This document shows positions 5,839 through 28,320 of a stretch of DNA of 30,460 bases, piece after piece. The position numbers and the translations under genes are program-made. Where the stretch lies: assembly GCA_964607495.1 (NCBI GenBank), contig CAZSKV010000751.1, forward strand, positions 1-30,460, given 5' to 3'. Within the stretch, counting starts at the first letter, position 1. Each line of letters begins with the position of its first letter. Origin of the DNA: an uncultured candidatus Brocadiaceae bacterium (GTDB taxonomy: Bacteria; Planctomycetota; UBA1135; UBA2386). Under the pieces are notes generated by a model. That model saw only the letters and a program-made list of their open reading frames with translations. It ran no database searches and had not been told where the DNA came from.

Positions 5839-5878
5839 CCTCCCCGTGATCGGACGGCACGGCGTACCTGCTTGAACC

Positions 5879-6103
5879 TCACGCCATCGGCCCGCGGCGC
5901 TGCGGCTGTGGGTGCGGGCTGCAGGTCGCGCCGGCAACGCACTCCGGGGCGCCAAAGCCACGATTCCACGCCTCGCGCCACGACTCCAAACGCAGCTGGC
6001 GACCTGGCAACAGCATCGCGGCAGGGGTGAGCACGCCCAACCCCAGCGCAATCAGCAACGGGGGTGCTCGCCGAGAGTTGTGTTCGCTGCGCTCCTCTTG
6101 CAT
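5879..6103 (-). pseudogene. 74-codon remnant: duplicated 5' end of paralog A running into unrelated sequence
   Basis: Begins [26 protein letters not shown] (paralog A: [26 protein letters not shown]). Similarity stops at the repeat boundary (6027), and the rest is not protein-like. Confidence 0.7.
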
Positions 6104-6153
6104 GGTTAGGCGCGAATGCCGCCGGGATCGTATCGACCACCGCCGCGGAACGA
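6027..6153. repeat. 127-bp direct repeat, copy 2
   Basis: Matches 2251-2377 with 5 mismatches. It contains ATG 6103(-) and the ATG 6116(+) of the first YfhO-type gene. Confidence 0.97.
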
Positions 6154-8656
6154 GCAGCTGCACGCGCTGCTGCTCGCGGCTCTGTGCGCGCTGCTCTTCC
6201 TCGGCAAGTCCGTGTGGCCCGGCTACGCCCTCGTGCCCTTTCCCCCGGAAGCGCACGAACCGTTGCTGCAGGAAGCGCTCGCGCGCGGCATGCCGCTCGA
6301 GCAGATCCTGGTCGGCAACTCGAGCCTCGGCGACAAGTACAACCAGTCGCTCGCGTGGGACCGCATCCAGCAGGACGCCTTGCGCGCGGGCAGCCTGCGC
6401 CTGTGGTCGCGCGAGCTCGGCGGGGGCGCGCCGTTCGTGCCGCAGATGGGCCAGATCTACCAACCCTGGAACCTGCTGCTGCTCGCGATCCCGGCCGCAG
6501 GCATCTACGGCCTGTGGTTCCTGCTGCACCAGATCGTGTTCGGATGGCTGACTTACCGCTTCTTCCGCCGGATCGGTCTCGCGCACGCGAGCGCCCTGGT
6601 CGGCCTCGTCTGCGCGGTGCTCGGACTCTGGCTGCAGGCGCGCGTGCACCACAACGTGATCGTGTCGGCCGCGTTGCCCTGCTTTGGCATCCTGGCCGCG
6701 GTCCATGCGCTCGTGCAGCATGGCGAACGTGCGCCGGCGGTCGGGCGTCTCGCGCTCGGCCTCGGCATCGCGTGGCTCGGCGGCTTCCCGCCGACCGCCT
6801 TGCAGGAGACGCTGCTGGCACTCGCCTACGCCGGTGTGCTGGCGTGCTCGGCCCCGAAGCCGGAGCGGGGCGCGCGCCTGCTGCGCGTCGCGATCGGGGT
6901 AGGACTCGGCGGCGCGCTCGCGGCCGCGCAGATGGTCCCGGTGCTCCTGGCTGCGGCCGAGTCCTCGCGAACCGCCGCCGACTCGCCTCAGCTCCTCCAC
7001 CTGCTGCACGCACGCGCCCTGCAACCGGCCCACCTGCTGGGCGCGATCTGGCCTGATCTGCTGCACTGGCCGGCCGAGACCTTCTACGGCCGGATCGACG
7101 CCGTGCGCTACGCGTGGGCCGCGCTCGGCCTGACACCGACCGTGATGCAGGCCGAGTTCAACTTCGCCGAGACCGCGTTCGGGATCTCCGTCCCCGGGCT
7201 CGCCTTCGCGCTGCTCGGGCTCGCCGCGCGCCCCCGCCGCGAGGCGCTCTTCTTCGGCGGCGCCTTGCTGCTCGGGATCGGTCTCGCGAGCGCATGGCCC
7301 GGGTTCTCGGGCGCCACGCGGCTCTTGCCCGGCGGGCGCGCGGGTGACCTCAAGCGCTACCTGTTCACGGCCGCGATCGCGCTCGCGGTGCTCGCCGCGC
7401 TCGGATGCGAGCGCTGGCGCGCGCGTGGTCCAGGCCGGCTGGTGCCCGCCCTCGTGGCCGCGGTCCTCGCCGCCTCGGCTGCGTTGCTGACCCTGCATCT
7501 GCGCGATGCCCGCGGCGTGCAGGAGCTGTACGCGCAGTGGCTCGCGCCGCTGCACGGCGCCACGGCCGAGATGTTCCACGCCGGCGTCGCGCAGAGTCCG
7601 AGCGAAGCCGCGGCCAACACCACCCACCTGCGGGCGACCTTCGCGCGCGCGGCGATCAGCGCCGCGCTGACGCTCGGCGTGCTGTTCTGGCGCAGCCGCT
7701 GGAGCCTCGGGATCGGGATCGCGGCGATCGCAATCGAGTTGCTGCACGCCGGGTCCGGAACGCGCATCGCGGTCGACCGGCGGCGGGTCGAGACGCCGCC
7801 GCAGGTGCTGCAGCCGGTCCTCGCCGATCCCGCCGGCGGCCGCTTGCAGCGCCTGTGCGCGCCAGCGGATCAGGGCCGCCGCTCGCCCTACCTGCCGCCG
7901 AACCTCGCGGCCTACTACGGCATCGCCGACCTTGCGGCCTACAACCCGCAGCCCAAGCAGCGGATGGAGCAGCTCTTCCTCGCGCTCGAGCCGGACGAAC
8001 CCGGCAAGGCGAGCGTCGTGTTCGGCGGCGCGGGGGTGAACCTGTTGCGCAAGCCGGCGAGCGCCACGCACCGCCTGCTCGATCTGCTCGCCTGCCGCTG
8101 GCTGCTGACCGGCGGACCCGTGGCCGCGTCCGGGCTCGTCGACCGCACGCCGGCCGGCGCGCCCCCGCCACACCGCCTCTACGAGCGGACCACGGCGATG
8201 CCGCTCGCGACCTTCGTGACCAGGACGCGCGTGGTCCCGGCCGCGACCGAACGCCTGGCCCTGCTCGGGTCTCCCGCCCATGACCCATCCACGACGATCG
8301 TGCTCGAGGACCTGCGCGCGCCGACGCCGCCGCCGCTCGCGTCCGCCGAGGCCGAGGCCGCGATCCTGTGGACCGCGCGCGAGTCCGAGCGCAGCGCCCT
8401 TCGGGTCCGCACCAAGGCCGCCGGCTATCTGCGCCTGGCCGACCCCTACGACGCGGGTTGGGTCGCGACCGTCGACGGCAAGGTCACGCCGGTCCACTGC
8501 GTCGACCACTACCTGCAGGGCGTCTACCTGCGCCCCGGCGAGCACGAGGTCGAGCTGCGTTACGCGGCGTGGTTCGTGCGCGCGCCCCAGCACCTGTCGC
8601 TCGTGGCCCTGCTGGTGTCGCTCTGGCTCGTACGCCGAAAGAGGAGCGATCGATGA
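6116..8656 (+). CDS. YfhO-family (GT-C fold) membrane glycosyltransferase-like protein 1; 846 aa
   Basis: Many TM helices, N-terminal LWSRELGGGAPF..QMGQIYQPWNLLL, and YfhO-type C-terminus GYLRLADPYDAGWVATVDGK..PV..VDHYLQGVYLRPGEHEVELRY plus a terminal TM helix. Confidence 0.85.
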   Translation: MPPGSYRPPPRNEQLHALLLAALCALLFLGKSVWPGYALVPFPPEAHEPLLQEALARGMPLEQILVGNSSLGDKYNQSLAWDRIQQDALRAGSLRLWSRELGGGAPFVPQMGQIYQPWNLLLLAIPAAGIYGLWFLLHQIVFGWLTYRFFRRIGLAHASALVGLVCAVLGLWLQARVHHNVIVSAALPCFGILAAVHALVQHGERAPAVGRLALGLGIAWLGGFPPTALQETLLALAYAGVLACSAPKPERGARLLRVAIGVGLGGALAAAQMVPVLLAAAESSRTAADSPQLLHLLHARALQPAHLLGAIWPDLLHWPAETFYGRIDAVRYAWAALGLTPTVMQAEFNFAETAFGISVPGLAFALLGLAARPRREALFFGGALLLGIGLASAWPGFSGATRLLPGGRAGDLKRYLFTAAIALAVLAALGCERWRARGPGRLVPALVAAVLAASAALLTLHLRDARGVQELYAQWLAPLHGATAEMFHAGVAQSPSEAAANTTHLRATFARAAISAALTLGVLFWRSRWSLGIGIAAIAIELLHAGSGTRIAVDRRRVETPPQVLQPVLADPAGGRLQRLCAPADQGRRSPYLPPNLAAYYGIADLAAYNPQPKQRMEQLFLALEPDEPGKASVVFGGAGVNLLRKPASATHRLLDLLACRWLLTGGPVAASGLVDRTPAGAPPPHRLYERTTAMPLATFVTRTRVVPAATERLALLGSPAHDPSTTIVLEDLRAPTPPPLASAEAEAAILWTARESERSALRVRTKAAGYLRLADPYDAGWVATVDGKVTPVHCVDHYLQGVYLRPGEHEVELRYAAWFVRAPQHLSLVALLVSLWLVRRKRSDR

Positions 8657-11238
8657 GGCACTTGCCGCGGCACTCGCTGCTCTGCCTGCTCGCGCTCGCG
8701 CTCGCGCCGCTGCTGCTCTTCGGCCCCTGCGTGGTCGGCGCGCGCAGCTACGTGCCGTTCGACCTCGCGCAGTGGCCGCCGATCGCGACGCAGCTCCAGC
8801 CCGAGCAGCTCGCGGCGATCACGGCCGGTCAGAACTCCGACGTCAGCGAAGTGCCGTTCACGTTCCTGCCCGAGCTGGTGTTCGCGAACCAGCAGTTGCA
8901 GCAGGGGCGCCTGCCGGAGTGGAACCCGTTCGCGCGCGCCGGCGCCCCCCTGCTCGCGACCTCGGTCGTCGGCCTGCTCTATCCGCCGAACTGGCTGTTC
9001 CTGCTGACGGGCAACCCGCTGCGCGGCCTCGCGTTCGGCGCCTGGTTCGCGCTCGCCGCGGCCGGGCTGCTGACCTTCGGACTCCTGCGCCGCCTCGGCC
9101 ACGTCCCCGCGATCGCGCTCTTCGGTGGCCTCGCGTTCCAGCTCTCGGCGACCCTGAGTGCGAACGCGCACTTCTACCAGCGCCTCAATGCCCTGGTGTG
9201 GCTGCCCGGCATGCTCTGGGCGATCGCGGCGATCGCGCGCGGCAACCACCGTGGCCGCATCGGCCTCGCGCTCGCGACCGGCCTGACCTGGACCGCGGGT
9301 TTCGCCCCCTACGCGGCGCCGGCCACCGGCGTCGCCGGACTCTTCGCGCTGCAGCAGATGCTGCAGACCGCGCGCTGGGACGGGCTCGCCGGCGCCGCGC
9401 GCACGGCGCGCGCGTGCGCGCTGGGGTTCCTGCTCGGCTTCGGCCTCGCGGCCGTGCAGCTGCTGCCGATGTTCGCGTTCTTCCCTGAGTCGAACCGCGA
9501 TCCGCACCCCAGCCTCGACGCGATCGCGAACCAGGCCTTCGATCCCCTCGGTGTGCTCGGCTACCTGCTGCCCGACGTGTTCGGCCACTCGACCGCCACC
9601 CAGGGTCTGCCGTACGAGAAGTCGCCCCTGGTCTGGTGGCTGTTCTCCCGCGCGAGCTGGGTCGACGGCAGACCCTTCACGCCGAACTACAACCTGATCG
9701 AGTACGCGGTGTTCCCCGGCACGCTCGTGCTCGTGCTCGCATGGCTCGGCTGCTGGGTGCGCGGCGCCCGCGACCGGCTCTTCGCCGCCGGCACCTGGCT
9801 GCTGCTGCTCGTGCTCGCGAGCGGTAGCGCGCTCGTGGCGCCGCTCTTCCAGCTGCCCGGCTTCGCGAGCCTGTCGCCGATGCGCTGCGTCGGCCCGGCC
9901 GCCATGCTGGTCGTGCTGCTCGCCGCGCGCGGGCTGGCGCCCGGCCCGCGCCAGCTCGCACCGCAGCTGGTGCGCGGCACCGGCCTGCTGGCCCTCGGCC
10001 TGGGGGCACTCTGCCTGCTGGGCGGGTGGTGGCTCACGCGCGCCGAGCCGCGCGAACTGCTCGCGCGGATCGCCCCGGCGATCGCCGCGCACTACCTGCC
10101 CCGCCTGCCGTCGGCGTCGCCTGCCGAGGTCATGCGCCTGCTCGAACCCTTCGCGGCGGCCGGCCACGAGCGGCTGGTCGGCGGCCTGATCCGTGGCGCC
10201 ATGGGACTCTGGCTGGCCGCGGTCTGGTTGCTGCTCGCCGCCCGCGCCGCCGGCGTGCCGTTGCGGCACAAGCTGCTGCTCGCCTACGCAATCGGCGCGA
10301 CCGTGGCCGAACTGGTCGCCTACGGCGCGCCACTCAACCACGGCCGCATGCTGCACGAACCGCGCGACACGCCCGTGCACGCGTTCCTGCGCGCCGAGCG
10401 CGACGCCAGTCGCGAGCGCGGCGGGGTGACCGTGGCGCGCGCCGGCCAGACGCTCGAGGACGGTGTGCCGCGCGCGGTCCTGCCGCTGCAGCTGCCGCCC
10501 TGCACGCTGGTGCCCGAGGGCATCCGCGACCTCAACATCTACACCTTCGTCGACGGCAAGTCGCATCGCCTCTTCGAGCGCCTCTATGGCGCGGCGCACA
10601 TGGTGCGCACCTACTGGCCGCTGGCACTCCTCGACGACGAGCGGCTCGCGCTGCCGCTCTTCGATCTCTTCGGCCTGCGCTTCCTGCTCGCCACCCAGCC
10701 CTTGCTGCACGCCGGCCGCAAGGTCGGTCCCACCTGGAAGGGGCCCGGCGGCGAGTTCTTTGTCTACGAGCGCCCGCGCGCGCTGCCGCGCGCGTTCGTG
10801 GTCGGCGACTTCAGGGAGCTCCCCGACGAGACGGCGGTCGTCGAGGCCATGGTGCGCAGCGACTTCGCGCCCGACCGCGTGGCCCTGCTGCTGCCTGCCG
10901 ACCAGCGGCGCATCGCCGACCACGCGATCTGGCCGGACGCCGGAAAGCGCAAGGTGCGCTTCACGCTCGACACGAACAACCACATCCACCTGCAGGTCGA
11001 CGCCGGCCCTCCCGGGCTGCTCGTACTCGCCGACGCGTACTTCTCCGGCTGGAGCGCGACGGTGAACGACCTACCGGCACCCGTCGTGCGCGGCAACCTG
11101 TTCTGCCGGCTCGTGCCGATCCCCGAAGACGAGTGCCGCGTGCGCCTGCGCTACGCGACGCCGTGGTTGGGCCCGGGCCTCGGGATCAGCGTGCTGGCGC
11201 TGCTCGCGCTCCTGCTGCTCGGTCGCCGCCGGAGCTGA
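8653..11238 (+). CDS. YfhO-family (GT-C fold) membrane glycosyltransferase-like protein 2; 861 aa
   Basis: ATG 8653 overlaps the previous stop (ATGA), with RBS GAGGAG at 8641. Motifs [16 protein letters not shown]...[10 protein letters not shown] and C-terminal [31 protein letters not shown]......VRLRY plus a TM helix. Confidence 0.85.
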
Positions 11239-11280
11239 GACGGAGTCAGGATCTTCGCTCGCCGAACCGGGACGATTGCC

Positions 11281-11292
11281 TACGATCCCGGC
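11281..11292 (+). promoter_or_regulatory. Candidate sigma70-type -10 element (TACGAT) upstream of the ior operon
   Basis: TANNNT hexamer in the 88-bp intergenic gap, 40 nt before ATG 11327. The same 12-mer TACGATCCCGGC occurs on the minus strand in both repeat copies. Confidence 0.4.
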
Positions 11293-11326
11293 CATCCGTC
11301 CCAAGCCTCCGGCCAGAGCCACTCCC

Positions 11327-11797
11327 ATGCCCCTTGAACTCACGGTGAACGGCAAACTCGTCGCGGTCGACGCCGACCCGTCGACCCCTCTGCTCTGGGT
11401 GTTGCGCGACCATCTGCGCCTGCTCGGCACGAAGTACGGCTGCGGCATGGCCCAGTGCGGCGCCTGCACGGTGCACGTCGACGGCACCGCGGTGCGCGCC
11501 TGTGTCGTGCCGGTGGCCACGCTGGCCGGCAAGCAGATCACGACCATCGAGGGCCTCGAGGGTCGCGCCGCCGCCGCCCTGCGCCAGGCGTGGACCGAGC
11601 TCGACGTCCCGCAGTGCGGCTACTGCCAGACCGGGCAGCTGATGAGCGCGGCCGTGCTGCTGCGCGAGCAGCCGCAGCCCTCCGATGCGGACATCGATGC
11701 CTGCATGGCCGGGAATGCGTGCCGCTGCGCGACCTACGTGCGCATCCGCGCCGCGATCCACCGCGCGGCCGTGGTGGCGAAGGCAGGCAAGCCATGA
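11327..11797 (+). CDS. iorA: (2Fe-2S)-binding small subunit of a molybdenum hydroxylase (IorA/CoxS family); 156 aa
   Basis: [20 protein letters not shown]...RAC and QCGYCQTGQ...NACRCATY cysteine motifs. Start [10 protein letters not shown]. Confidence 0.93.
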
Positions 11798-13950
11798 GCC
11801 ACGACCCGGGCCTGTCGCGCCGCAGCTTCCTGCGCGTGTCCGCCGCCGCCGGCGGCGGCCTGCTGCTCGCGTTCCGCCTGCCAGCCGCCCCGCGCGCGGC
11901 GGCCGCCCCGGCCCCGGCAGCCGATTTCGCGCCGAACGCATTCGTGCGCATCGCCGGCGACGGCCGCGTGACCGTGATCGTCAACAAGTCCGAGATGGGC
12001 CAGGGCATCAGCACCTCGCTGACCATGGTCGTGGCCGAGGAGCTCGACGCCGACTGGAGCCGCGTCGGCTTCGAGTTCGCCCCGGTCGATCCCGTCTACG
12101 CGCATCCGGGCTACGGCATCCAGATGACGGGTGGCAGCACGAGCACGATGGGGATGACCGAGCCGATGCGCCGGGCCGGGGCAACGGCCCGCGCCCTGCT
12201 CGTCGCCGCCGCGGCCCAGGAGTGGAAGGTCCCCGCCGCCGAGTGTCGGACCGAGAACAGCGCCGTCGTGCACGGCCCGAGCGGCAAGCGCGCCGGCTAC
12301 GGCGAGCTCGCGGCGACTGCCGCCACCCTGCCCGTGCCGGCCGAGGTCCCGCTCAAGGATCCGCGGCACTTCCGCCTGATCGGCAAGTCGACGCACCGGC
12401 TCGACACGCCGGCGAAGGTCGCGGGCACCGCCGTGTTCGGGCTCGACGTCCACCTGCCTGGGATGCTGACCGCGGTCGTTGCACACCCACCGACCTTCGG
12501 CGGCGTCGCGAAGTCCTGGGACGACCGCGCGACGCTCCAGGTCCGCGGCGTGAAGGCCGTCGTCGACGTCGGCAGCGGCGTGGCCGTCGTCGCCGAGAGC
12601 TTCTGGGCGGCGAAGCTGGGTCGCGATCGCCTGCAGATCGAGTGGGACCACGGTGCCAACGCCAAGGTGTCGAGCAGCGTCCTGCGCGCGTCCTATGCGC
12701 AGCTCGCGCGCACGCCTGGCAGGATCGCGCGCAAGACCGGGGACGCGGCCGCGGCCGCGCGCGCGGCCGCGCGCACGCTCGACGCCGAGTACGAGCTCCC
12801 CTACCTCGCGCACGCGGCGATGGAGCCCTTGAACTGCACGGTCGACCTGCGCCCCGACGCGTGCGAGATCTGGGCCGGCACCCAGTTCCAGACCGTCGAC
12901 CAGGCGGCCGCCGCCGGCGTGCTCGGCTTGCCGCCCGCCAAGGTGAAGCTGCACACGACCTTCCTCGGCGGCGGCTTCGGCCGGCGCGCGAACCCGGCGT
13001 CGGACTACATCGTCGAGGCCGCGAAGATCGCCAAGGCCGTGCGGGCGCCGCTCAAGCTGGTCTGGACCCGCGAGGACGACATGCGCTCGGGCTACTACCG
13101 CCCGATGTGGCACAGCAGGATCACGGCCGCGCTTGACGCCTCCGGTGCGATCACGGCTTGGACGCACACGATCGTCGGCCAGTCGATCATCGAAGGCACG
13201 CCCTTCGCGTCGTTCCTGATCAAGGACGGCATCGACGGCACCTCGGTCGAGGGCGCCGAGGACCTGCCCTACGCGATCCCGAACCTGCAGGTCGATCTGC
13301 ACACGACCGCGGTCCCGGTCCCCACGCTCTGGTGGCGATCGGTCGGCCACTCGCACACGGCGTTCGTCGTCGAGAGCTTCCTCGACGAGGTCGCGCACGC
13401 GGCGGGCACCGACCCGGTCGCGCTGCGCCGGCAGCTGCTCGCCGGCAAGGAACGCCACCTCGGGGTGCTCGAGCTGGCTGCCGCCCGGTCCGGCTACGGC
13501 AAGCCGCTGCCCGAGGGCCGCGCGCACGGCTTCGCGCTGCACTTCTCGTTCCACACCTACGTCGCGATCGTGCTGGAGGTCTCGCTCGAGAACGGCTGGC
13601 CGCGCGTGCACAAGGCCACCTGTGCGGTCGACTGCGGCCAGACGATCAACCCCGACACGGTCATGGCCCAGCTCGAAGGCGCCGTCGGCTTCGCGCTGAG
13701 TGCGGCGCTCTACAGCGAGATCACGCTGCAGGACGGTCGCGTGCAACAGTCGAACTTCCACGACTACCGGCTGTTGCGCATCCACGAGATGCCTGCGGTC
13801 GAGGTGCACCTGGTGCCGAGCGGCGCTCCGCCGACCGGCGTCGGCGAACCCGGCGTGCCGCCGGTCGCGCCGGCGCTCGGCAACGCGCTGTTCCGGCTCA
13901 CCGGCAAGCGCATCCGCCGCCTGCCGATCCGGCCGGAGGATCTGCGATGA
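11794..13950 (+). CDS. iorB: Molybdopterin-binding subunit, isoquinoline 1-oxidoreductase beta (IorB)-like, with Tat signal; 718 aa; actual substrate unknown
   Basis: ATGA-coupled to iorA. Twin-arginine signal [58 protein letters not shown]. Confidence 0.93.
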
Positions 13951-14543
13951 TGCGCGCGCTCGCGTTGGCCGCGGCGGCAGCCGCGGCGATGTTGACTTGC
14001 CAGTGCGGCACGGCAGGCGCCGCTCCCGCAGCGTCCGCACACAGTGCCAGCGCCTGGCGCACGGTCTATGCCGTGCTGCAGCACGCGCGCTGCAAGAACT
14101 GCCATCCGGCTGGCCGCGTGCCCTTGCAGGGCGATGACAGCCGCGTGCACGGCCAGAACGTGCAAGGCGGTCCGGACGGGAAGGGGCGCTTCGCGATGCG
14201 CTGCGTGAACTGCCACCTCGAAGCGAATGCGCCCGGACCGAACCAGCCGCCCGGCGCGCCGAACTGGCACCTGCCGGCCGCCGCGACGCCGCTGGTGTTC
14301 GAGGGCAGGAGCCCGGCCGAGCTCGCGCGCCAGCTCGCGGACCCGGAGCAGAACGGCGGGCGCACGATGGCGCAGTTGCTCGAGCACGTGAGCACGGACC
14401 CGCTCGTGCTCTGGGGCTGGAATCCCGGCGAAGGCCGGGCTCCGGTTCCCGTCCCGCACGCCGCGTTCGTGGCGGCGATGCGCGCCTGGATCGAGGGTGG
14501 GTGCAGGATTCCGGACGAGCCCGCGGCCGGCGGTCAGCGATAG
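13947..14543 (+). CDS. Exported di-heme c-type cytochrome, third gene of the ior operon; 198 aa
   Basis: ATGA-coupled to iorB, Ala-rich signal peptide, two CXXCH motifs (CKNCH, CVNCH), C-terminal [11 protein letters not shown]. Confidence 0.85.
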
Positions 14544-16402
14544 GCCGCGAGGTAGCCCTCGAGTTCCGCCTTCGCCGAGAAGTTCTCCCGCACGCGGCCG
14601 TGCCCCCCGGCGCGCAGCCTGGTCACGAGCGCCGAATCCCCGAGCACGCGCGCGATCGCCCGCGCGCCGCTCTCACGGGTCGCGTAGAGCAACCCGCTCT
14701 CGCCGTCGGTGATCACCGCTCTGGCTGCTGCCGTTTCGCGGGCCACCGCGGGGATGCCGAGGGCCAGCGCCTCGAGCAGTGCGTTCGACAAGCCCTCGCG
14801 CTCGCTCGCGTGCAACGAGACGGCAGCCGTCGCGAGGAGCTGCAGCGTCGCCTCGCGCGGCATGGCCCCGGCGTGGCGGGCCCAACTCCGCGCCGCGAAC
14901 CAGGGTGCAGGATCGAGGTTCGGGTCGAGCACGGGTCCGACCAGCACGTAGCGCAGGTCCGGCACCAGTTCCCGGGTCCGATCGACGAGGTGCAGGCACT
15001 CGGGGAAGCCCTTCTCGGCGCGGACTCCGGCGATCTGCACCAGCAGCGCGGGTGCCGGAGCGGGCACGAGTTCGGGCACGACGACGCCGTGCGGGACCAC
15101 GCGGATCCGACCCACAGCTCCGGGGGCGACCGCCTCGAGCCGCTGCCGCTGCGCATCCGTCAACACGGTGATCACGCGCGCACGCGCGATCGTCGCGAGC
15201 ACCGCGTCGCGGCCCGGGCCTGAGCCCTCGAGCTCGTCGAGATCGGTGCCGCGGAACGACAGGACCAGCGGCAGGCCGTGCGCCCCTGCGAGCGCGGCCC
15301 CGAGCGGACCGGCGCGCATGGCCTGGATCGCGTGCACGACGGCGATCCCCGCCGGCAGCTCGGGCGGGACCTGCGGCTGCTCCGCCGCGACCACCGGCGC
15401 GGGCACGTCGCAACCTTCCTGCAGCAGCGCATGGCGCAGCCGGGCCGCGGAGACGCTGTTGCCACGGTTGGCGTCGAGCGCGAAGGGCACCACGAGCTGC
15501 ACGGCCGGACGCCGTGGCGCCTTGCCGAGCGCCATCTCCAGGATCGCATTCGCGAACAGCCGGTCGCCACGGTCGCGCGGGTAGAGGCCGGGCGCGGAGT
15601 TGACCTCGGCGACCTGCACCGAGCCATCCTCGGCTTCGAGCAGATCGACGCTGCCGTGGCCGAGATCGCAGCTCGTGAGCGCCTGATCGGCCAGCGCACG
15701 CAGCGCGGCGTCACAGCGTGCCTCCTCCCAGGGTCCGCCGTAGCGCGGGTTGGTGCGGAACTCGTCGTGGCTCGCGAACAGCCGGTAGGCGCGCGCGTAG
15801 CCGCCGCGCACCAGGGCGATGGTCAGCGAGCACCGGTGGCGCACGTAGTGCTGCACCAGCAGGAGCTCCGCCGGCCGCAGCTGGTGCGCCTGGGTCAGCG
15901 CCGCGCGCAGCGCCGAGGCATCGGCGCACTTCTGCACGCCCATCCCGCCCCAGCCGAAGGGGTGCTTGAGCACGACCGGATAGCCGCCGATGCCCTCGAC
16001 TAGCGCTTCCAGATCCCCCGGCGGCAGTGGCCCGGCACGCAACGCGAACGACGCCGGCACCGGCAGGCCGGCCGCCGCGAACGCGGCGAAGCTCTGCACC
16101 TTGTCCTCGGCCAGCGCGACGCCCCGCGCCGACACCAGCGTCCGGAGGCCCGCGGCATCCAGCGCGCGCAGCGCACTCTCGACGGTCCACAGGTCGTGGC
16201 TGTCGCGGATGTCCGCGCGCGGCAGCACGACCTCGTCGGCGGCGAGGCCGAACACGCCCTTGCCCGGCACCAGGCGCAGCTGCGCGATCTCGACCACCCG
16301 CGCGCGGTACCCGAGCCAGCGCGCACAGGCGAGCAGCAGCTCGTTGCTCTTGGCATCGGCCGCATTGCCGTGCGGCGAGGAGTTGAGGATCGCGAGACGC
16401 AT
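14534..16402 (-). CDS. Fusion: N-terminal RimK/LysX-type ATP-grasp ligase plus C-terminal GT4 (GT-B) glycosyltransferase; 622 aa
   Basis: ATP-grasp: EDKVQSF...[38 protein letters not shown]...[10 protein letters not shown]4: [50 protein letters not shown]. One continuous frame. Start chosen at MRLAILNSS (16402). Confidence 0.85.
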
Positions 16403-16550
16403 GCGGCCTGCGTGCGGATCCAACAGCGCGCCATGGTGCTGCGGCAAGGCCTCGCTGCAGAAGCTGCGCGGCCGTTCGGCGCCAGTCGCGACGCCCTCGC
16501 CGGCGTCCGCTCGCGAGCTGGGTGCAGGCAGCGGGCAGGCACCCTGGGGG

Positions 16551-16578
16551 TTGCACCCTTCCAGAATAGGTCTAAGCT
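16551..16578 (+). promoter_or_regulatory. Putative sigma70-type promoter of the blaI-like operon
   Basis: TTGCAC (16551-56), 16 bp, TAAGCT (16573-78) in an AT-rich island; RBS AAAGGA at about 16610 before ATG 16626. Confidence 0.6.
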
Positions 16579-16596
16579 TAGTCAACTAAGCGTAGA
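16571..16596. promoter_or_regulatory. 26-bp palindromic operator, probable BlaI-family binding site
   Basis: TCTAAGCTTAGT-CA-ACTAAGCGTAGA: 12-bp arms with 11/12 complementarity and a 2-bp spacer. It overlaps the -10 element directly upstream of a BlaI/MecI/CopY repressor gene, a family known to autoregulate through such dyads. Confidence 0.8.
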
Positions 16597-16625
16597 GCAC
16601 CCAGGTACGAAAGGACGACTCACCG

Positions 16626-17036
16626 ATGCCAGGCAAGGAGCTCCCCGAACCGACCGAGCGCGAACTGCAGATCCTGAAGGTGCTCTGGGACCGCGGCGAA
16701 GCGAGCGTGCACGCGGTCTACCTGGCCCTGCGCGACGATCTCGGCATCGTGCAGAACACCGTGCAGGCGTTCCTGCGCACGATGGAGGCGAAGGGGCTCG
16801 TGACCCACCGCACGGTCGGCAGGACCTTTCTCTACCGGCCGCGGCTCGAACGCGAACATGCCGCGCGGCGCCGGGTCTCGAACGTGCTCGAGCGGGTATT
16901 CGACGGGGCGCTGGACGAGCTCGTCGCCCATGCGCTCTCCGTGCGCTCGCCGAGCGTGGAGGAACTGTCCCGCCTGCGCGCGATGATCGACGAGCTCGAG
17001 ACCGACGCACGCAGCGGCCGGAGGCCACGGCGATGA
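16626..17036 (+). CDS. BlaI/MecI/CopY family transcriptional repressor; 136 aa
   Basis: PTERELQILKVLWDRGEASV...NTVQAFLRTMEAKGLV.....GRTFLYRP...VLERVFDG, followed by a coupled M56 peptidase gene. Confidence 0.93.
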   Translation: MPGKELPEPTERELQILKVLWDRGEASVHAVYLALRDDLGIVQNTVQAFLRTMEAKGLVTHRTVGRTFLYRPRLEREHAARRRVSNVLERVFDGALDELVAHALSVRSPSVEELSRLRAMIDELETDARSGRRPRR

Positions 17037-18733
17037 GCGAGCTCCTGGCCGTGCTCGAGGCGGCTGCGCCCAGGGCGCTGCTCGGCAGCAGCCTGCTGCT
17101 CGGACTGGGCCTGCTGGTCGCCGGCTGCTGCAAGGAGCCCTTGCATCGCCAACGCGCCGCGGAGTGTGCGACCGCGAGCACGCTCGTATGGCTGCTGCTC
17201 GTGCTGTTGCCGCTGCCGGCCCCGCTGCCGGCCCAGGTCGCGCCGGCGGGACCGGCAGCACCTGCCGCGGCGAGGCCGGCGGAGAGGCGCTCCGCCGACC
17301 TCGCATGGCTCCTGCAGGCCCGCGAGGCCGAGCTCGCCGCGATCGGGGCGGAGCTGCCGCAGGCCCCCGCACCGGCTCCGAAACCGGCGCCGACGCCGAC
17401 TGACTGGATCCACCTGGGCGTCCGCGTCTGGCTCGCCGGCTGCGCCCTGGGCCTCGCCTGGCTCGGCCTCGGCGTGGTCGTGCTCGCGCGCCTGGTGCGC
17501 CATGCCAGACCCATGGCCGGCATGCCGCAGGTGCTGGTCAGCCGCCGCGCGCACCAGCCGTTCTGTTGCTGGTTCGGTCGCGACCGGATCGTGCTGCCTG
17601 CCGCGCTCTGCACCGCCGCGGCCGCCGAACGCCTGCAGGCCGTGCTGGACCACGAGCAGGCCCACCTCGCGCAGCGCGACCCGCGTGGCCGCGTGCTCTT
17701 CGCGCTGGCTCTGCCGCTGCTGGTCCTGCATCCCTGCTACTGGCTCTTGCGGCGCACTGCGTTCCGCTCTGCCGAGCTCGTGGCCGACGAGCTGGCAGCC
17801 ACCCGCACGAGCCGCGCGCGCTATGCGCGCGCGATGATCGATCTCGCCGCTGTGGCGACCAGCCGCACGCCCTGGCTGCTGCCCGCGACACCGGCATTCC
17901 GTGGCCGTTCCGAGTTCTACCGGAGGATGAAGATGTTGCTGCAGAGACAAGAGCGTCTGGTTGTCCGTTGTGCCCCGATCCGCCGTGCCGCCCACGCGGC
18001 CCTGGCCCTGCTCGCGCTCGCCGCCCTGACCGCGGGCACCAACGGGATGCGCGCCCAGGAGCAGGATCCAGCTCCGGCCGAAGCCCGGCATGCGCGCCTG
18101 GTGCAGGAACGCGACGCGCTGCAGGCGCAGATCGCGGAACTGCGCGCCGCGGTCGCGAAGCTGCAGCGCGAGCGCGAAGCGCAGGTCACGCATCGCCAGG
18201 CCGCCGCAGAGGCGGCGCAGGCCGCCGCGAAGCAGAAGGCGCTCGACGACCCTTTGCGCGCCGACGCCGCCCGCGCCGAGGCCAATCCGCTCGCGCAGCT
18301 GCTCCTCGCGCAGCGCGCCGCCGAGCGGAACAGGGGCCTGGCGGAGGTGATGGACAAGATCACGGGCGAACATCCGGCATACACCCAGGCCCGCGTGCAG
18401 GCCGCCGGATCCGACGTGCTCGGGCTGGTCACGCGCGCGATCGATCTGGACGGCGAGGTCACGCTCGCGAAGGAACGCCTGGGCCATCTCGAGGCCAGGG
18501 TCGCCGCCGGCGCCGCTTCCCAGGACGACGTGCTCGAGGCCAAGGTCCGGCTGAAGACCGCCACCAAGAAGCGGGATGTCGTGCGCACAGCGCTCGAGAC
18601 CGAGCAGAATGCCTGCGAGCACGAGATCCAGGCCGAGATGAAGCGCCTCGAGAAGGACCCGGAGTCCGCGGACGTGCGGGCTCGGCTGATCCGGCTCAAG
18701 GGCAAGCTGACCGCGATCCAGCAGGCCCGCTGA
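17033..18733 (+). CDS. M56 family (BlaR1/MecR1-like) metallopeptidase with a coiled-coil C-terminal region; 566 aa
   Basis: ATGA-coupled to the repressor. N-terminal TM helices, PFCCWFGRDRIVLP, HEXXH motif VLDHEQAHLAQRD, ELVADELA, RRMKMLL, then a TM/signal-like segment and an Ala/Gln/Glu-rich helical tail. Confidence 0.9.
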   Translation: MSELLAVLEAAAPRALLGSSLLLGLGLLVAGCCKEPLHRQRAAECATASTLVWLLLVLLPLPAPLPAQVAPAGPAAPAAARPAERRSADLAWLLQAREAELAAIGAELPQAPAPAPKPAPTPTDWIHLGVRVWLAGCALGLAWLGLGVVVLARLVRHARPMAGMPQVLVSRRAHQPFCCWFGRDRIVLPAALCTAAAAERLQAVLDHEQAHLAQRDPRGRVLFALALPLLVLHPCYWLLRRTAFRSAELVADELAATRTSRARYARAMIDLAAVATSRTPWLLPATPAFRGRSEFYRRMKMLLQRQERLVVRCAPIRRAAHAALALLALAALTAGTNGMRAQEQDPAPAEARHARLVQERDALQAQIAELRAAVAKLQREREAQVTHRQAAAEAAQAAAKQKALDDPLRADAARAEANPLAQLLLAQRAAERNRGLAEVMDKITGEHPAYTQARVQAAGSDVLGLVTRAIDLDGEVTLAKERLGHLEARVAAGAASQDDVLEAKVRLKTATKKRDVVRTALETEQNACEHEIQAEMKRLEKDPESADVRARLIRLKGKLTAIQQAR

Positions 18734-18763
18734 ACCCCGCGCCGCGCCGCCCGGGACCGCATC

Positions 18764-19192
18764 ATGGCCACGAAGCGGAAGCCACCCACGAAGCCGTCGG
18801 GTCCGCAGGAGGTCGCCGCGTTCCTCGCGCGGCTCGACCATCCGCTGCGGCCGACCTTGGAGGCGGTGCGGGCGCTGGTGCTCGGCGTCGACCGGGGGAT
18901 CACCGAGCACATCAAGTGGAACGCGCCGAGCTTCTGCATCGACGGCGAGGACCGCGTGACCTGCCACCTGCACCGCAAGCGCTACCTCCTGATCGTGTTC
19001 CACAAGGGGGCGAAGGCGAAGGAGAGGCACGGGGGCGGACCCTTCTTCACGGACGACACCGGCCTCCTGCAGTGGCTCTCGGACGACCGGGCGATCGTCA
19101 CGCTGCACAGCCGCGACGAGTTCGCGGCGAAGCAGGCCGCGCTGCGGAAGGTCGTGAAGACCTGGATCTCGCGGACGCGTGGGCGCAGCTGA
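18764..19192 (+). CDS. DUF1801 (YdhG-like) domain protein; 142 aa
   Basis: VAAFLARLDHPLR....AVRALV....ITEHIKWNAPSF pattern. Confidence 0.8.
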   Translation: MATKRKPPTKPSGPQEVAAFLARLDHPLRPTLEAVRALVLGVDRGITEHIKWNAPSFCIDGEDRVTCHLHRKRYLLIVFHKGAKAKERHGGGPFFTDDTGLLQWLSDDRAIVTLHSRDEFAAKQAALRKVVKTWISRTRGRS

Positions 19193-19230: not shown

Positions 19231-19902
19231 TCAGCGCTGCAGTGCCCGGAACGACACCGCGGCGACCCCCAGCGCGGCGAGGCGCTCGGGCAGCCGCGCG
19301 GCCAGCAGCGCGCGAAACTCGGCCTCGCGCTGCCGCTTGTAGGTGAGGCGCTCGTCGCCGTCGAACACCTCGGCGGGATGGCACATGAGTTCGGTCGTGC
19401 CCGGGCCGAGCGTGCGGCAGAGCGCGACGAGCCGCGCGCCGCGCAGCGCGCAGCGCGCGGCGACGCTGCCCACGAAGTGCTCGGGACACGCGACCCCGAG
19501 GCGGCGCAGCTCGCGCCGGACGCGGGCATTGGGCGCGCGCATCGGCAACTGCTGCGTCGCGAGCACCTGCAGCACGGCGCGGTGATCGCGGTGGGTCTGC
19601 TTGTGCGTGTCGAGATGATCCGGCGGCGCCCCGACCAGCTCGGAAAAGCGCGCGAGCTGGCGCTGCAGCCGGCCCATGAGCTCGCGCGGGTCGTAGTGCA
19701 CGAGATCGCGCGTGAAATCGACGTGCAGGCCGATCCCGACCGCCGGCGCGACGGCGCGGAGCTCGCCGATCGCGGCCGCGGTCGCACGTTCGGCCAGGAC
19801 CGACACGCTGGTCACGACGCCCAGTGCCGCCAGCGCGCGGATGCCCCGGTCGATCCCGGGCGACAGGCCGTAGTCGTCGGCGTTGACGATCAGGCGTTTC
19901 AT
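19231..19902 (-). CDS. YdjC/ChbG/HpnK-family carbohydrate deacetylase; 223 aa
   Basis: MKRLIVNADDYGLSPGIDRGI, VTSVSV, GIGLHVD, PDHLDTH, TTELMCHP, R..E. ATGA-coupled to the methyltransferase. Confidence 0.88.
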   Translation of the reverse strand: MKRLIVNADDYGLSPGIDRGIRALAALGVVTSVSVLAERATAAAIGELRAVAPAVGIGLHVDFTRDLVHYDPRELMGRLQRQLARFSELVGAPPDHLDTHKQTHRDHRAVLQVLATQQLPMRAPNARVRRELRRLGVACPEHFVGSVAARCALRGARLVALCRTLGPGTTELMCHPAEVFDGDERLTYKRQREAEFRALLAARLPERLAALGVAAVSFRALQR

Positions 19903-20600
19903 CGCCGCCGGGCCTCGAGCACGCGGCCCCGCCAGACCAGGCACGCCCCGTGCTGCCAGACCTGCGCGTCCCCGCGGGCGGCGCGTGCCAGCAGGTGCGC
20001 GAGCAGCTGCGGGTCGCCGCCCGCGTAGCTCGCGGTCGCGACCCAACGCCAACGCTCGGCGAGCGTGCGCCAGACGAAGCGACGCGAGAGCGCGCGCTCG
20101 ACGAGCGCGGGGTCCGCGAGCGAATGGTGGTAGAGCAACAGCCTGCCGCCGGGCACGAGCCGCTCCGCCGCCTCCGCGCACAGGGTCTGCAGGTGCAGCG
20201 TGCCGTCCTCGCCCGCGGCGTAGCGCAGGTCGAACTCGTGCGGCGCCGGCTTCTGTGGCGGGACCGCCACGACCAGATCGAGGCGCTGGTCCGGCGGCAA
20301 CGGTGCGAGCCACGATCCCTGGCAGGTCGTGACCGCGGCCTGGTTCTCGCCCGCCGCGCCACGCAGCAGTGCGAGCGCGCGCGCATCCACGTCCGTGGCC
20401 CAGACTGGTCCTGCGCACAGACGCGCGGCGAGCAGCGCGAGGACCCCGGTGCCGCAGCCGGCTTCGCAGACACGGGCCCCTGGCGGCACGCGCAGTTGGC
20501 GGGCCACGAAGCGGGTCGCCTGATCGGAGCCGTGCTGGTCGTCGCGCCACTCGACGAGCTGCTGCCCGGCGAGCCGCAGCGTGCGGCGCACGAAGTCCAT
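19899..20600 (-). CDS. Class I SAM-dependent methyltransferase, HemK/PrmC-like; 233 aa
   Basis: Motif I VCEAGCGTGVLAL, WATDVD, DLVVAVPPQ (NPPY-like motif IV), AAGEDG, LVPGGRLLL. Start overlaps the upstream stop (TGATG). Confidence 0.85.
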   Translation of the reverse strand: MDFVRRTLRLAGQQLVEWRDDQHGSDQATRFVARQLRVPPGARVCEAGCGTGVLALLAARLCAGPVWATDVDARALALLRGAAGENQAAVTTCQGSWLAPLPPDQRLDLVVAVPPQKPAPHEFDLRYAAGEDGTLHLQTLCAEAAERLVPGGRLLLYHHSLADPALVERALSRRFVWRTLAERWRWVATASYAGGDPQLLAHLLARAARGDAQVWQHGACLVWRGRVLEARRR

Positions 20601-21417: not shown

Positions 21418-22161
21418 GTGGCCGAACGAACGCTGATCCTGATCCCCGCCTGCAACGAGGAAGGCCGCCTGGCCTGCGTCCTCGACGCGGTCGCGGCCCA
21501 GGGTCTCGCGGCCGACGTCCTCGTGCTGGACGACGGCAGCCGCGACGGCACGGCGAGCGAGGCGCGGCGCCGCGGCGCGATCGTGGTCTCGCACCCCTTC
21601 AACCTCGGCTACGGCTCCGCGCTGCACACCGGCTACCACTATGCGCGCAGGCACGGCTACACGCGGCTCGTGCAGATGGACGCCGACGGCCAGCACGACC
21701 CGCGCTCGCTGCCGGCGCTGCTCGACGGCCTCGAGCGCGGTGCCGACGTCGTCGTCGGTTCGCGCTACCTGGCCGGCTCCGCGCCGCCGACCTCGTTCGC
21801 GCGCCGCGCCGGCTCCCGCCTCTTCGCCTGGATCGTGTCCCGTTGGACCGGCACGCGGATCACCGACCCGACTTCGGGCTTCCAGGCGCTGTCGGGGCGT
21901 GCGCTCGAGTTCCTGGCCCAGGACCACTTCCCCGAGGACTATCCCGACGCCGACGTGCTGATCATGCTGCACCGCGAGGGCATGCGCCTGCTCGAGGTGC
22001 CGGTGCAGATGCATGCGCGCCTGAGCGGCCTGTCGATGCATCGCGGTGGCCGTGCCGCCTACTACGCCTACAAGATGCTGCTCACGCTCGCGCTCCTGCG
22101 CGTGCGCCGCAAGTCCCCGTTCCGCTCCGGCACCTTGACGCCGCTCCCCTCCGCCCGCTGA
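21418..22161 (+). CDS. GT2 family glycosyltransferase (DPM1-like polyprenol-phosphate glycosyltransferase); 247 aa
   Basis: LILIPACNEE, VLDDGSRDGT, HPFNLGYGSAL, QMDADGQHDP, DVVVGSRY, ITDPTSGFQA, LLEVPVQM. A TATCCT -10 candidate lies at 21398-21403. Confidence 0.92.
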   Translation: MAERTLILIPACNEEGRLACVLDAVAAQGLAADVLVLDDGSRDGTASEARRRGAIVVSHPFNLGYGSALHTGYHYARRHGYTRLVQMDADGQHDPRSLPALLDGLERGADVVVGSRYLAGSAPPTSFARRAGSRLFAWIVSRWTGTRITDPTSGFQALSGRALEFLAQDHFPEDYPDADVLIMLHREGMRLLEVPVQMHARLSGLSMHRGGRAAYYAYKMLLTLALLRVRRKSPFRSGTLTPLPSAR

Positions 22162-22163
22162 CC

Positions 22164-22598
22164 ATGCCGACCCAAGCCCTCCCCGAACGCCAGGCATTGG
22201 TCGCGGTGCTGCTCGCGCTGGCGATGCTGATCGTCGTCGTCGAACTCGTGCGCAAGCGCAAGCTGCGCGAGGAGTACTCGTTCCTGTGGGTCGGGACCGC
22301 GCTCGCACTGCTGGTGCTCGCGGTCTGGAGCGATTCGCTGACCTGGTTCCAGCAGCTGATCGGCGCAGCCGTGCCGACCTCGGCGTTGTTCTTCGGCGGA
22401 CTCGTGTTCCTGATGCTCGTCGCCCTGCAGTTCTCGGTCCGCATCTCCAAGGAGTCGTTCCGGCAGAAGACGATGGCACAGCGCACCGCCCTGCTCGAGC
22501 GCGAGGTCGACGAACTCCGCGCGCGGATCGACGAACTCGAGGCCGAGCGCAAGGGGCGCGCCGCTCCTCCCCGCCGCGAGGCCGGCAGTGCCTCCTGA
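22164..22598 (+). CDS. DUF2304 family membrane protein; 144 aa
   Basis: VVELVRKRKLREEYSFLW, 3 TM helices, FSVRIS...LAQR.ALLE coiled-coil tail. Typical position right after a GT2 gene. Confidence 0.85.
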   Translation: MPTQALPERQALVAVLLALAMLIVVVELVRKRKLREEYSFLWVGTALALLVLAVWSDSLTWFQQLIGAAVPTSALFFGGLVFLMLVALQFSVRISKESFRQKTMAQRTALLEREVDELRARIDELEAERKGRAAPPRREAGSAS

Positions 22599-23100
22599 TT
22601 TCGCGGCCTTGCTCGCCACCGAATTCCGGCGGCGGCTGCTCGGCGAATACGTACCGCGGATCCGCCACTGCGCAGGCCTGCTGAGCGAGAGCCAGGCCTG
22701 GCAGAAGCCGGCACCGGGCGGCAATTCGCTCGGCAACCTGCTGCTGCACCTCGAAGGCAACGTCCGCCAGTGGATCCTCGGCGAGATCGGCGGCGAGATC
22801 GGCGGCGAGATCGACGGGCGCGACCGGGCGGCCGAGTTCGCGGCCGTGGCCGCGACCGCGCCCGCGCCGATCCCGGCACTCCTGCTGCGCCTGGAGACGA
22901 CCGTGAGCCGGGCCTGCACGCTGGTGGACGGCCTGTCCGAAGCGCAACTGCGCACGCGGCAGGTGTTCCAAGGCCGTTACTCCGAGACCTGGTTCTCGGC
23001 GATCGTGCACGTGCTCGAACACTTCTCCGGGCACGCCGGGCAGATCTACTTCTGGACCAAGGCGCTGACCGGCAAGGACCTGAAGTTCTACGACCTATGA
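22588..23100 (+). CDS. DinB/DUF1572-family protein; 170 aa
   Basis: NSLGNLLLHLEGNVRQWI, RDRAAEF, HVLEHFSGHAGQI (DinB His triad). GTG start overlaps the DUF2304 gene end. Confidence 0.85.
   Translation: MPPDFAALLATEFRRRLLGEYVPRIRHCAGLLSESQAWQKPAPGGNSLGNLLLHLEGNVRQWILGEIGGEIGGEIDGRDRAAEFAAVAATAPAPIPALLLRLETTVSRACTLVDGLSEAQLRTRQVFQGRYSETWFSAIVHVLEHFSGHAGQIYFWTKALTGKDLKFYDL
22780..22815 (+). repeat. 3 x 12-bp in-frame tandem repeat (GGCGAGATCGGC x2 + GGCGAGATCGAC) encoding GEIG-GEIG-GEID
   Basis: Read directly from the sequence. Confidence 0.9.
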
Positions 23101-24629: not shown

Positions 24630-24634
24630 CCGCC

Positions 24635-28314: not shown

Positions 28315-28320
28315 TCGACC

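Follow-up and report, generated by a model that had tools for sequence, protein, structure and literature searches.

ATP-grasp ligases such as RimK, LysX, CofF and MptN normally attach an amino acid to a carboxylate of their substrate, not to a sugar amine; RimK acts on the C-terminus of S6 and LysX on that of LysW. HpnK, of the YdjC family, deacetylates an N-acetylglucosamine (GlcNAc) glycoside in hopanoid biosynthesis. Among glycosyltransferases, BshA uses UDP-GlcNAc and L-malate (PMC6282198), and SenB accepts UDP-GlcNAc, among other UDP-sugars, together with selenophosphate (PMC10891094). The selenophosphate pocket of SenB comprises N20, H58, R61, T83, T85 and R155, while K158 is needed for cleavage of the Se-P bond (PMC10891094). 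In Campylobacter jejuni, Cj1438 carries an N-terminal glycosyltransferase of family 2 (GT2) and a C-terminal, TupA-like ATP-grasp amidoligase, and takes part in capsule synthesis (PMC11800379). Here we describe a gene that joins a RimK-type ATP-grasp ligase to a glycosyltransferase of family 4 (GT4) in a 30,460-nt contig (CAZSKV010000751.1, assembly GCA_964607495.1) of an uncultured candidatus Brocadiaceae bacterium of the Planctomycetota. This whole stretch is referred to below as the window; related loci and proteins are designated by L and P numbers, respectively.

The fusion gene is a natural and very rare merger of two translationally coupled neighbour genes. It had originally been treated as an orphan; instead, it belongs to a conserved cassette with the order methyltransferase, YdjC, ATP-grasp, GT4, whose other members are encoded in the window. 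The features concerned are:

14534..16402, minus strand: fusion gene, RimK-type ATP-grasp ligase plus GT4 glycosyltransferase, 622 amino acids (aa) and stop codon (open reading frame, Pfam, NCBIfam, colinear homologues P0002-P0007)
15518..16402, minus strand: ATP-grasp domain, aa 1-295 (PF08443, TIGR00768, alignment, Foldseek)
14537..15508, minus strand: compact GT-B-fold GT4 domain of about 322 aa, aa 299-622 (PF00534, PF13692, PF13524, PF13439, NF038229)
19231..19902, minus strand: carbohydrate deacetylase of the YdjC/ChbG/HpnK family, 223 aa (tblastn; PF04794, 121 bits)
19899..20600, minus strand: class I S-adenosylmethionine-dependent methyltransferase, MTS/PrmA/HemK-like, 233 aa (tblastn; PF05175 MTS, 47 bits; PF06325 PrmA)

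The frame of the fusion is open from 14534 to 16585 on the minus strand (683 codons). The Met codon at 16402, from which all five full-length homologues align, yields the protein of 622 aa; a longer start, the TTG at 16585, was ruled out, since every homologue alignment begins at the Met. G+C content is 0.89 at third and 0.53 at second codon positions, a coding-frame composition (the sequence is 72% G+C), and codon composition is even on both sides of the junction. PF08443 (RimK) matches aa 98-274 (E 4.8e-14, 52.8 bits; gathering cut-off 21) and PF00534 (Glycos_transf_1) aa 452-597 (E 1.5e-13, 51.1 bits; gathering cut-off 26.4). Further GT4 matches are to PF13692, PF13524 and PF13439 (Glyco_trans_1_4, Glyco_trans_1_2 and Glyco_transf_4), the last below its gathering score. 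The domains meet at about aa 295-300 (nt 15503-15517), close to the position near 15530 put forward in the original prediction. The latter had also described a single frame with a complete ATP-grasp and a complete glycosyltransferase domain: its coordinates proved exact, Pfam and the translation agree with it, and all the motifs it had quoted are found in the fusion protein.

Besides the window protein, a search of 5.8 billion clustered proteins returned four that are full-length and have both Pfam domains in this arrangement (44-50% identity, 100% coverage). When 1.84 billion representatives were scanned exhaustively with HMMER, full-length fusions made up six clusters in total, the lower matches being stand-alone relatives of either half. 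Identities among the five to six full-length clusters range from 44 to 52% on both sides of a linker of conserved length, (G)xxARRPxVxLVVPF, across which five fusion sequences are colinear. These homologues come from independent JGI, ENA and Logan assemblies and NCBI metagenome-assembled genomes (MAGs) and represent at least five independent samples and assemblers. Three loci matched the query over its full length in a scan of GTDB species representatives, all of them in Planctomycetota MAGs; the match in L008 is split (P0032), and continuity of the frame in L006 and L007 was not separately confirmed. Even the nearest GTDB fusion is only 45% identical to the window protein. Scanning JGI metagenomes with alignment A1 added one more partial fusion (L088), the rest being generic RimK-like genes. 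The ATP-grasp half alone, run against the 5.8 billion proteins by a word-index search, gave three weak matches; the contexts discussed below were recovered from the exhaustive search of representatives and from contig look-ups, and many of them come from short contigs. In the split relatives L086, L168, L169, L171 and L177, the ligase and glycosyltransferase genes lie side by side, in most cases with a 4-nt overlap. Such an overlap is short enough that a one-base error could in principle merge the two genes, and an artefactual junction was what the original prediction had allowed for. However, fusions that recur in the independent samples and assemblers noted above, with the same linker length and comparable identity on either side, together with the uniform codon composition through the junction, leave an assembly or sequencing error with next to no probability. 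Altogether, the colinear independent fusions and the adjacent, overlapping genes of the split relatives identify the junction as a natural one.

In every relative with visible flanks, a YdjC gene on the same strand precedes the fusion or the split pair, usually with an MTS/PrmA-type methyltransferase gene before it. The methyltransferase and YdjC genes lie directly upstream in L001-L008, L086, L168 and L171, and stop and start codons of the cassette genes often overlap. The window has the same order and strand, and its methyltransferase and YdjC genes, which overlap each other by 4 nt, are 2.8 kb from the fusion. In tblastn comparisons, the YdjC protein is 50-58% identical to its counterparts encoded immediately ahead of the fusion in L001 and L005, and the methyltransferase is 57% identical to the one encoded upstream of YdjC in L001/L007. 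The proteins of all four functions retain their catalytic motifs. The cassette is contiguous in all relatives (L001-L008, L086, L168, L169, L171); in this genome only, a block of 2.6 kb encoded on the other strand (16626..19192) breaks it up. The block comprises three genes, none a cassette member:

16626-17036, plus strand: BlaI-type repressor (PF03965)
17033-18733, plus strand: BlaR1/M56 peptidase-like protein with a long coiled C-terminal region (PF05569)
18764-19192, plus strand: DUF1801 protein (PF08818)

The fusion and blaI are divergently oriented around a common intergenic region of 223 bp (16403-16625).

Further loci join the same functions in other combinations. A Ddl-like ATP-grasp ligase is fused to the methyltransferase, upstream of YdjC and GT4, in L011, L014, L017 and L018 (Syntrophorhabdus, deltaproteobacterial and Acidobacteriota MAGs); in L011 the fused gene spans 7432-9135 and encodes 567 aa. 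Methyltransferase and YdjC are fused upstream of GT4 in L012, another Planctomycetota MAG (5471-7021, about 506 aa), and YdjC is followed by a GT4-methyltransferase fusion of 641 aa (P0059) in L173-175, on groundwater contigs (L173, 1069-2994). The order in L177 is ATP-grasp, GT4, methyltransferase. A minimal YdjC and GT4 pair, with no ATP-grasp gene within 8-10 kb, was found in Desulfuromonadales, Nitrospirota and others. Pairwise fusions of at least four different kinds thus link the four functions across phyla, which is strong comparative evidence for their acting in one pathway. The nesting of the arrangements suggests a modular build-up, in which a deacetylated glycoside core was supplemented by methylation and then by ligation.

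In the ATP-grasp half, the residues for ATP and Mg2+ are all present: AEDK (K101), VVLKHP (K146), FRTN at 215-218 (R216 and N218) and VD...EVNSAPG (D253, E266 and N268), and the catalytic residues are conserved across three alignments (A1-A3). Motifs specific to the subfamily are SPxGNxAD (S9, G12, D16), R62-x-D64-x-R66 and GWGGxG (150-155); S9, G12, D16, R62, D64, R66, E99 and W151-G-G are invariant in alignment A2. The best-scoring hidden Markov model (HMM) is TIGR00768 (rimK_fam), at 97.5 bits against a cut-off of 143.4. The equivalog models failed: LysX (60 against 276), RimK PRK10446 (46 against 331), MptN (44 against 350) and CofF (22 against 300). An AlphaFold model of the fusion, built from five sequences (predicted local distance difference test score, 81.6), was compared with known structures using Foldseek. 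The ATP-grasp half matched RimK (5zct; E 1e-19, template-modelling (TM) score 0.81), LysX (3vpd) and ArgX (3vpb), with target-normalised TM scores of 0.80-0.84, which supports a three-domain ATP-grasp fold for the predicted model. The same three proteins are the best PDB sequence matches of aa 1-295.

The glycosyltransferase half contains GN at 314-315 (within a motif spanning aa 313-322), SFRGTDL at 382-388 (GTD at 385-387), VRAEKG at 460-465 (R461 and K464) and an EX7E motif, E536...E544, within aa 531-544. Its best curated family is NF038229, the uncharacterised "GPMC system family 4 glycosyltransferase" (155.1 bits against a cut-off of 400). SenB (TIGR04348) is the second-best NCBIfam at 55.1 bits against 300, BshA (TIGR03999) reaches 36.1 bits against 273.7, and MshA (TIGR03449) is absent from the 25 best listed of the 48 families matched at E<=0.1. 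The ranking NF038229, SenB, BshA also holds for all partner glycosyltransferases examined, which score 155-353 bits with NF038229. The best PDB sequence matches are BshA entries (5d00, 2jjm and 3mbo; E 1e-17), and the best Foldseek match of the modelled structure is SenB (8jjn_A; E 4.5e-16, TM score 0.81, 25% identity). When the N-terminal half of the domain was compared with the PDB as a 14-sequence profile, SenB came first, just ahead of BshA; the single sequence of this half found no match in the PDB. Thus, the resemblance to SenB noticed in the original prediction is borne out by fold, profile and HMM scores, while the nearest curated family is NF038229 and not SenB. Since every curated equivalog cut-off tested failed, on profile scores the fusion should not be filed under RimK, LysX, MptN, CofF, SenB, GPMC or BshA.

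To compare the acceptor sites, the published SenB residues were carried through the profile alignment of the N-terminal half. N20 corresponds to N315 of the fusion, T23 to S318, H58 to Q360, R61 to R363, T83 to R384, T85 to T386, R155 to R461, K158 to K464, E231 to E536 and H235 to N540. Of the six pocket residues and K158, seven in all, five are identical, namely N315, R363, T386, R461 and K464, several of them generic to GT4 enzymes, in which residues of the R461/K464 type form the usual diphosphate-binding pair. The position of Q360 is occupied by His in most relatives of the window glycosyltransferase. A small anion-binding acceptor pocket is therefore predicted to be largely kept. The EGGAHV sugar-binding motif of SenB (E231, H235) is replaced in the window by ordinary GT4 sequence, with E536 retained, and EGG[AS]H was found in none of the approximately 150 best relatives (153 related proteins were fetched). 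Glycosyltransferases with a RimK-type ligase partner have Arg at 313 and 384 (RGN, RGTD), where the others have T, S, A or G. This covariation in 14 sequences, possibly phylogenetic in origin, hints at a more anionic acceptor; a regular-expression survey among stand-alone glycosyltransferases could not be linked to partners and was discarded.

Selenium-linked genes were found in one context only. In L087 (213-5846), a split ATP-grasp and GT4 pair, whose ligase is 29% identical to that of the window, is followed on the same strand by genes for YedF (183 bits, cut-off 110), a TIGR01977/SclA-like cysteine desulfurase, SelD (356 bits, cut-off 125) with an N-terminal selenium/sulfur-carrier domain, and an AhpC/TSA peroxiredoxin. 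This contig begins just upstream of the pair, so the region of YdjC and the methyltransferase is not covered. Elsewhere, in the window and in all remaining loci, a tblastn search for SelD, YedF and cysteine desulfurase/SclA was negative. The original prediction had noted that senA, senC and selD were missing: the absence of selD was confirmed, while senA and senC were not specifically searched for and have no candidate among the annotated open reading frames.

Both partner enzymes keep the signatures of their families. The YdjC protein has the motifs NADDYG, GLHVD and HLDTHKQTH, in which the DD/H residues of the family are preserved; its best NCBIfam matches, chitin disaccharide deacetylase and HpnK, are both below cut-off, and the HpnK model likewise matches the YdjC partners of relatives. 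The methyltransferase has GCGTG as motif I and VPPQKP as motif IV, the latter conserved as xPPQ(K/T)P in alignment A4. Motifs IV of the (D/N)PP(Y/F) class are typical of methyltransferases acting on amino groups, and by its xPPQ motif the enzyme is predicted to be of the amino type.

We thus envisaged, tentatively, that the cassette makes a soluble glucosaminide with a modified nitrogen, N-aminoacylated, N-methylated or both. This reading, the one we favour but hold with reserve, draws on homology, motifs, predicted structure and gene neighbourhood, and on analogy with known pathways. The original prediction had suggested an aminoacylated or peptidyl glycoside, or the modification of an envelope component; the data agree with such a function, which the present reading would make more specific. 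The GT4 domain would move GlcNAc from UDP-GlcNAc to a small anionic acceptor. This acceptor would occupy the pocket that corresponds by homology to the one for selenophosphate in SenB and is related to the site where BshA takes its acceptor. The obligately linked YdjC deacetylase implies an N-acetylated sugar; it would strip the N-acetyl group and expose the 2-amino group of glucosamine. The methyltransferase would then N-methylate an amine, most simply that of glucosamine; since it occurs with YdjC and GT4 in loci free of the ligase (L012, L173-175), its substrate is probably independent of ligation. Finally, the ATP-grasp domain would activate a carboxylate as acyl-phosphate and form an amide bond with an amino acid, either at the sugar amine or at a carboxylate of the aglycone. 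Alternatively, the ligase might act first and make the acceptor. Whichever order applies, consecutive steps would be joined in two of the three multi-step fusions, so that the fusions do not decide between them. The cassette is self-contained among unrelated neighbours in the loci with a Ddl-like ligase (group B) and in several loci of group A', which fits synthesis from common metabolites better than a step in a polysaccharide assembly line.

Several points weigh against this reading. The donor and the acceptor cannot be read from membership of a glycosyltransferase family, as all the equivalog cut-offs failed, and the site of ligation is uncertain because RimK, LysX, CofF and MptN act on carboxylates. 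A literature search found no paper mentioning the combination of YdjC, ATP-grasp and glycosyltransferase or the GPMC system. The insertion splits the cassette of the window into two transcription units, so that co-expression is not assured. Genes for envelope glycans lie in several contexts (L001/L007, the window, L168 and L009). Lastly, the cassette is rare, with tens of 50%-identity clusters among the 1.84 billion representatives, which speaks against a redox buffer central to an entire phylum and makes a specialised metabolite or a surface decoration more likely than a core cofactor. That the product, in members of the Planctomycetota, Acidobacteriota, Nitrospirota and deltaproteobacterial lineages, is a new low-molecular-weight glucosaminide cofactor, perhaps a thiol or a seleno- or thio-sugar derivative made by non-orthologous enzymes as a functional analogue of N-methyl-bacillithiol, is a doubtful proposition. 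Candidate signs of a thiol or redox theme (AhpC in L087 and L013, MsrA in L011, a PIG-L protein with homogentisate genes in L171) were too sparse to count.

The surroundings of some cassettes could be taken to mean that the product is one residue of a lipid-linked or polymeric surface glycan, to which GlcNAc is added, then deacetylated, N-methylated and N-aminoacylated, or in which a neighbouring uronic acid is amidated, in the manner of amino-acid-decorated O-antigen and capsule sugars and of the C. jejuni amidoligase Cj1438. In L001/L007 a PMT_2 (GT-C) gene follows the fusion by 66 bp on the same strand and precedes three YfhO-like genes; the window holds two YfhO-like genes (6113-11235) and genes for a polyprenyl-phosphate GT2-like protein and DUF2304 (21418-22595). 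Directly upstream of the cassette in L168, on the same strand, is a WcaJ-type undecaprenyl-phosphate glucose phosphotransferase gene (431 bits, cut-off 410), and in L009 the YdjC and glycosyltransferase pair comes after PEP-CTERM and exopolysaccharide-associated genes. Capsule synthesis also provides the precedent of a fused glycosyltransferase and ATP-grasp ligase (PMC11800379). Yet no flippase, polymerase or additional glycosyltransferase accompanies the cassette consistently, its neighbours in group B and in several loci of group A' are unrelated housekeeping genes, and proximity to YfhO-like genes is confined to Planctomycetota loci (the window and L001/L007) and could be incidental. The glycosyltransferase itself, compact, SenB-type, about 320 aa long and with an anion pocket, is not of the lipid-acceptor type. 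A role in a surface glycan, while it deserves attention, is in our estimate unlikely.

Two other proposals start from the relatives of single domains. If the enzyme worked as SenB does, it would couple UDP-GlcNAc to an inorganic nucleophile, for instance selenophosphate or thiophosphate, and the resulting 1-seleno- or 1-thio-sugar would be deacetylated, methylated and amidated to a methyl-selenosugar-like or thiosugar metabolite. Among solved structures, none is nearer to the glycosyltransferase half than SenB, which is also the top match of its N-terminal profile; the selenophosphate-pocket residues and the counterpart of K158 are largely conserved, and the pair in L087 is followed by YedF, SclA-like desulfurase, SelD and peroxiredoxin genes. 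Against this, selenium genes occur in only one of about 20 distinct contexts, and not in the window; L168 and L169, which hold the closest relatives of the L087 ligase, have none where flanks are visible; the EGGAHV motif is absent; the SenB model scores 55 against a cut-off of 300; and R461 and K464 are generic to GT4. Chemistry of this kind appears improbable. Modification of a protein is suggested by the ligase, whose closest characterised relatives, RimK, LysX and ArgX, target protein C-termini, and by the methyltransferase, nearest to the protein methyltransferases PrmC and PrmA: the former would extend a protein or carrier peptide by amino acids at its C-terminus, the latter methylate it and the glycosyltransferase glycosylate it. 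However, no conserved small open reading frame for a carrier or substrate lies beside the cassette, the group B ligase is Ddl-like and not RimK-like and yet keeps the same partners, and an obligatory carbohydrate deacetylase with a SenB/BshA-like, small-acceptor glycosyltransferase is ill-fitting for a protein target. We give this proposal very little weight.

The remaining genes assigned in the window are the following:

6113-8653 and 8653-11235, plus strand: tandem pair of YfhO-like (GT-C type) membrane proteins
11327-11797, plus strand: 2Fe-2S subunit of a molybdenum hydroxylase
11788-13950, plus strand: molybdenum cofactor-binding subunit with a twin-arginine translocation signal
13947-14543, plus strand: 198-aa protein with two CxxCH motifs
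21418-22161, plus strand: polyprenyl-phosphate glycosyltransferase-like GT2, best match PpgS
22164-22595, plus strand: DUF2304 protein, the usual partner of PpgS-like GT2
4111-5841 (minus strand), 2442-4121, 23097-25261 and 27385-29739 (plus strand): genes with no evident link to the cassette (kinase, FAD, ALDH, carbonic anhydrase, GHMP and hydrolase group)

The YfhO-like pair, the GT2 and the DUF2304 protein are together the components of a three-part extracytoplasmic glycosylation system. The gene for the 198-aa CxxCH protein converges on the fusion, the two 3' ends overlapping by 10 nt (14534-14543). The group without evident link consists of a GAF-HisKA-HATPase-receiver hybrid histidine kinase, a FAD_oxidored family protein, an aldehyde dehydrogenase, a beta-carbonic anhydrase, a GHMP kinase (homoserine kinase-like) and a beta-lactamase-fold serine hydrolase.

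Some relatives carry additional genes beside the cassette. In L171 (5677-13763), a deacetylase of the PIG-L/LmbE family, which includes BshB, MshB and Mca, is encoded directly upstream of the four-function cassette; downstream are a gene of the fumarylacetoacetate hydrolase family (PF01557 FAA_hydrolase) and a homogentisate-dioxygenase-like gene (PF20510 HgmA_N only), then genes for DoxX and a metallo-beta-lactamase (MBL)-fold hydrolase. The homogentisate pathway normally requires a thiol-dependent isomerase. In L002/L003/L007 an HDAC-family deacetylase (PF00850) is found upstream of the methyltransferase instead. P0114 (739 aa) has a GT4 domain of the window clade at aa 389-692, preceded by about 385 residues without a Pfam match, which may be yet another partner domain. 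In L029, from a Desulfuromonas MAG (8330-11931), an ApaH-like metallophosphoesterase gene comes before the YdjC and GT4 pair and a gene for a 371-aa protein without a family match after it; in L169 (2878-4002) a 374-aa MBL-fold hydrolase follows the cassette. One of these flanking proteins of L029 or L169 could provide a phosphatase or hydrolase step.

If the glucosaminide reading is correct, the cassette encodes an uncharacterised small pathway that uses familiar folds to make a modified glucosamine compound. It would carry the scheme of GlcNAc transfer, deacetylation and ligation known from bacillithiol and mycothiol over to enzyme families and phyla new to it, and give a function to the curated "GPMC system" clade of GT4 enzymes, the sister group of the only known selenium glycosyltransferase. 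The independent fusions, at least four in number, make the pathway directly testable with three or four soluble proteins and common substrates.

When the cassette is set beside known systems, its folds and pathway logic are familiar, while the enzyme set and the fusion themselves are uncharacterised. The ligase has its fold and ATP/Mg motifs in common with RimK, LysX, ArgX, CofF and MptN, but differs from them in its own N-terminal signature (SPxGNxAD, RxDxR), its GWGGxG loop and its sub-threshold rimK_fam score; its family is always linked to YdjC and GT4, whereas genes for S6, LysW or cofactors are linked in none of the contexts seen. Like SenB (PDB 8jjn, 8fbx and 8k5u), the glycosyltransferase is a compact GT-B protein of about 320-330 aa with the motifs GN..(T/S)A.R, GTD and R...K; unlike SenB, it has Arg in place of T83, lacks EGGAHV, is fused to an ATP-grasp domain and is linked to YdjC and a methyltransferase, as SenB is not known to be. 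Near-members of the GPMC family in Desulfuromonadales MAGs (L029, at 353 bits below the cut-off of 400) also have a YdjC gene upstream (L016, L019, L021, L029), but neither an ATP-grasp nor a methyltransferase gene within 8-10 kb, and in place of the FRGTD and RGN of the window they show LTGTD, as in SenB, and TGN. The flanks of these loci held no further GPMC-named families.

The original prediction knew of no characterised protein with this architecture. Cj1438 shows that a characterised fusion of this general kind exists: within one polypeptide, a glycosyltransferase and an ATP-grasp enzyme that forms amides work on a single glycan (PMC11800379). It departs from the window protein in families and layout, with a GT2 and not a GT4 domain, a TupA-like and not a RimK-like ligase, the opposite domain order and an extra middle domain, and it is without YdjC or methyltransferase partners. 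The likeness is one of analogy, not homology. In Nod-factor tailoring (NodB, NodS, NodA) and in the HpnI/HpnK pair, a GlcNAc glycoside is converted to a free amine that is N-methylated or N-acylated, as we propose for the cassette; the enzyme families differ at every step except YdjC/HpnK, and no nod or hpn genes are nearby. Closest in chemical logic are bacillithiol and N-methyl-bacillithiol (BshA, BshB, BshC, NmbA) and mycothiol (MshA-D), whose biosynthesis matches the four functions of the cassette: GlcNAc is moved onto a small acceptor and N-deacetylated, an amino acid is joined through an amide bond, and N-methylation is the fourth function (PMC6282198). The cassette departs from them in its enzymes, employing YdjC instead of LmbE/PIG-L, an ATP-grasp ligase instead of BshC or MshC, and an MTS/PrmA-like methyltransferase.

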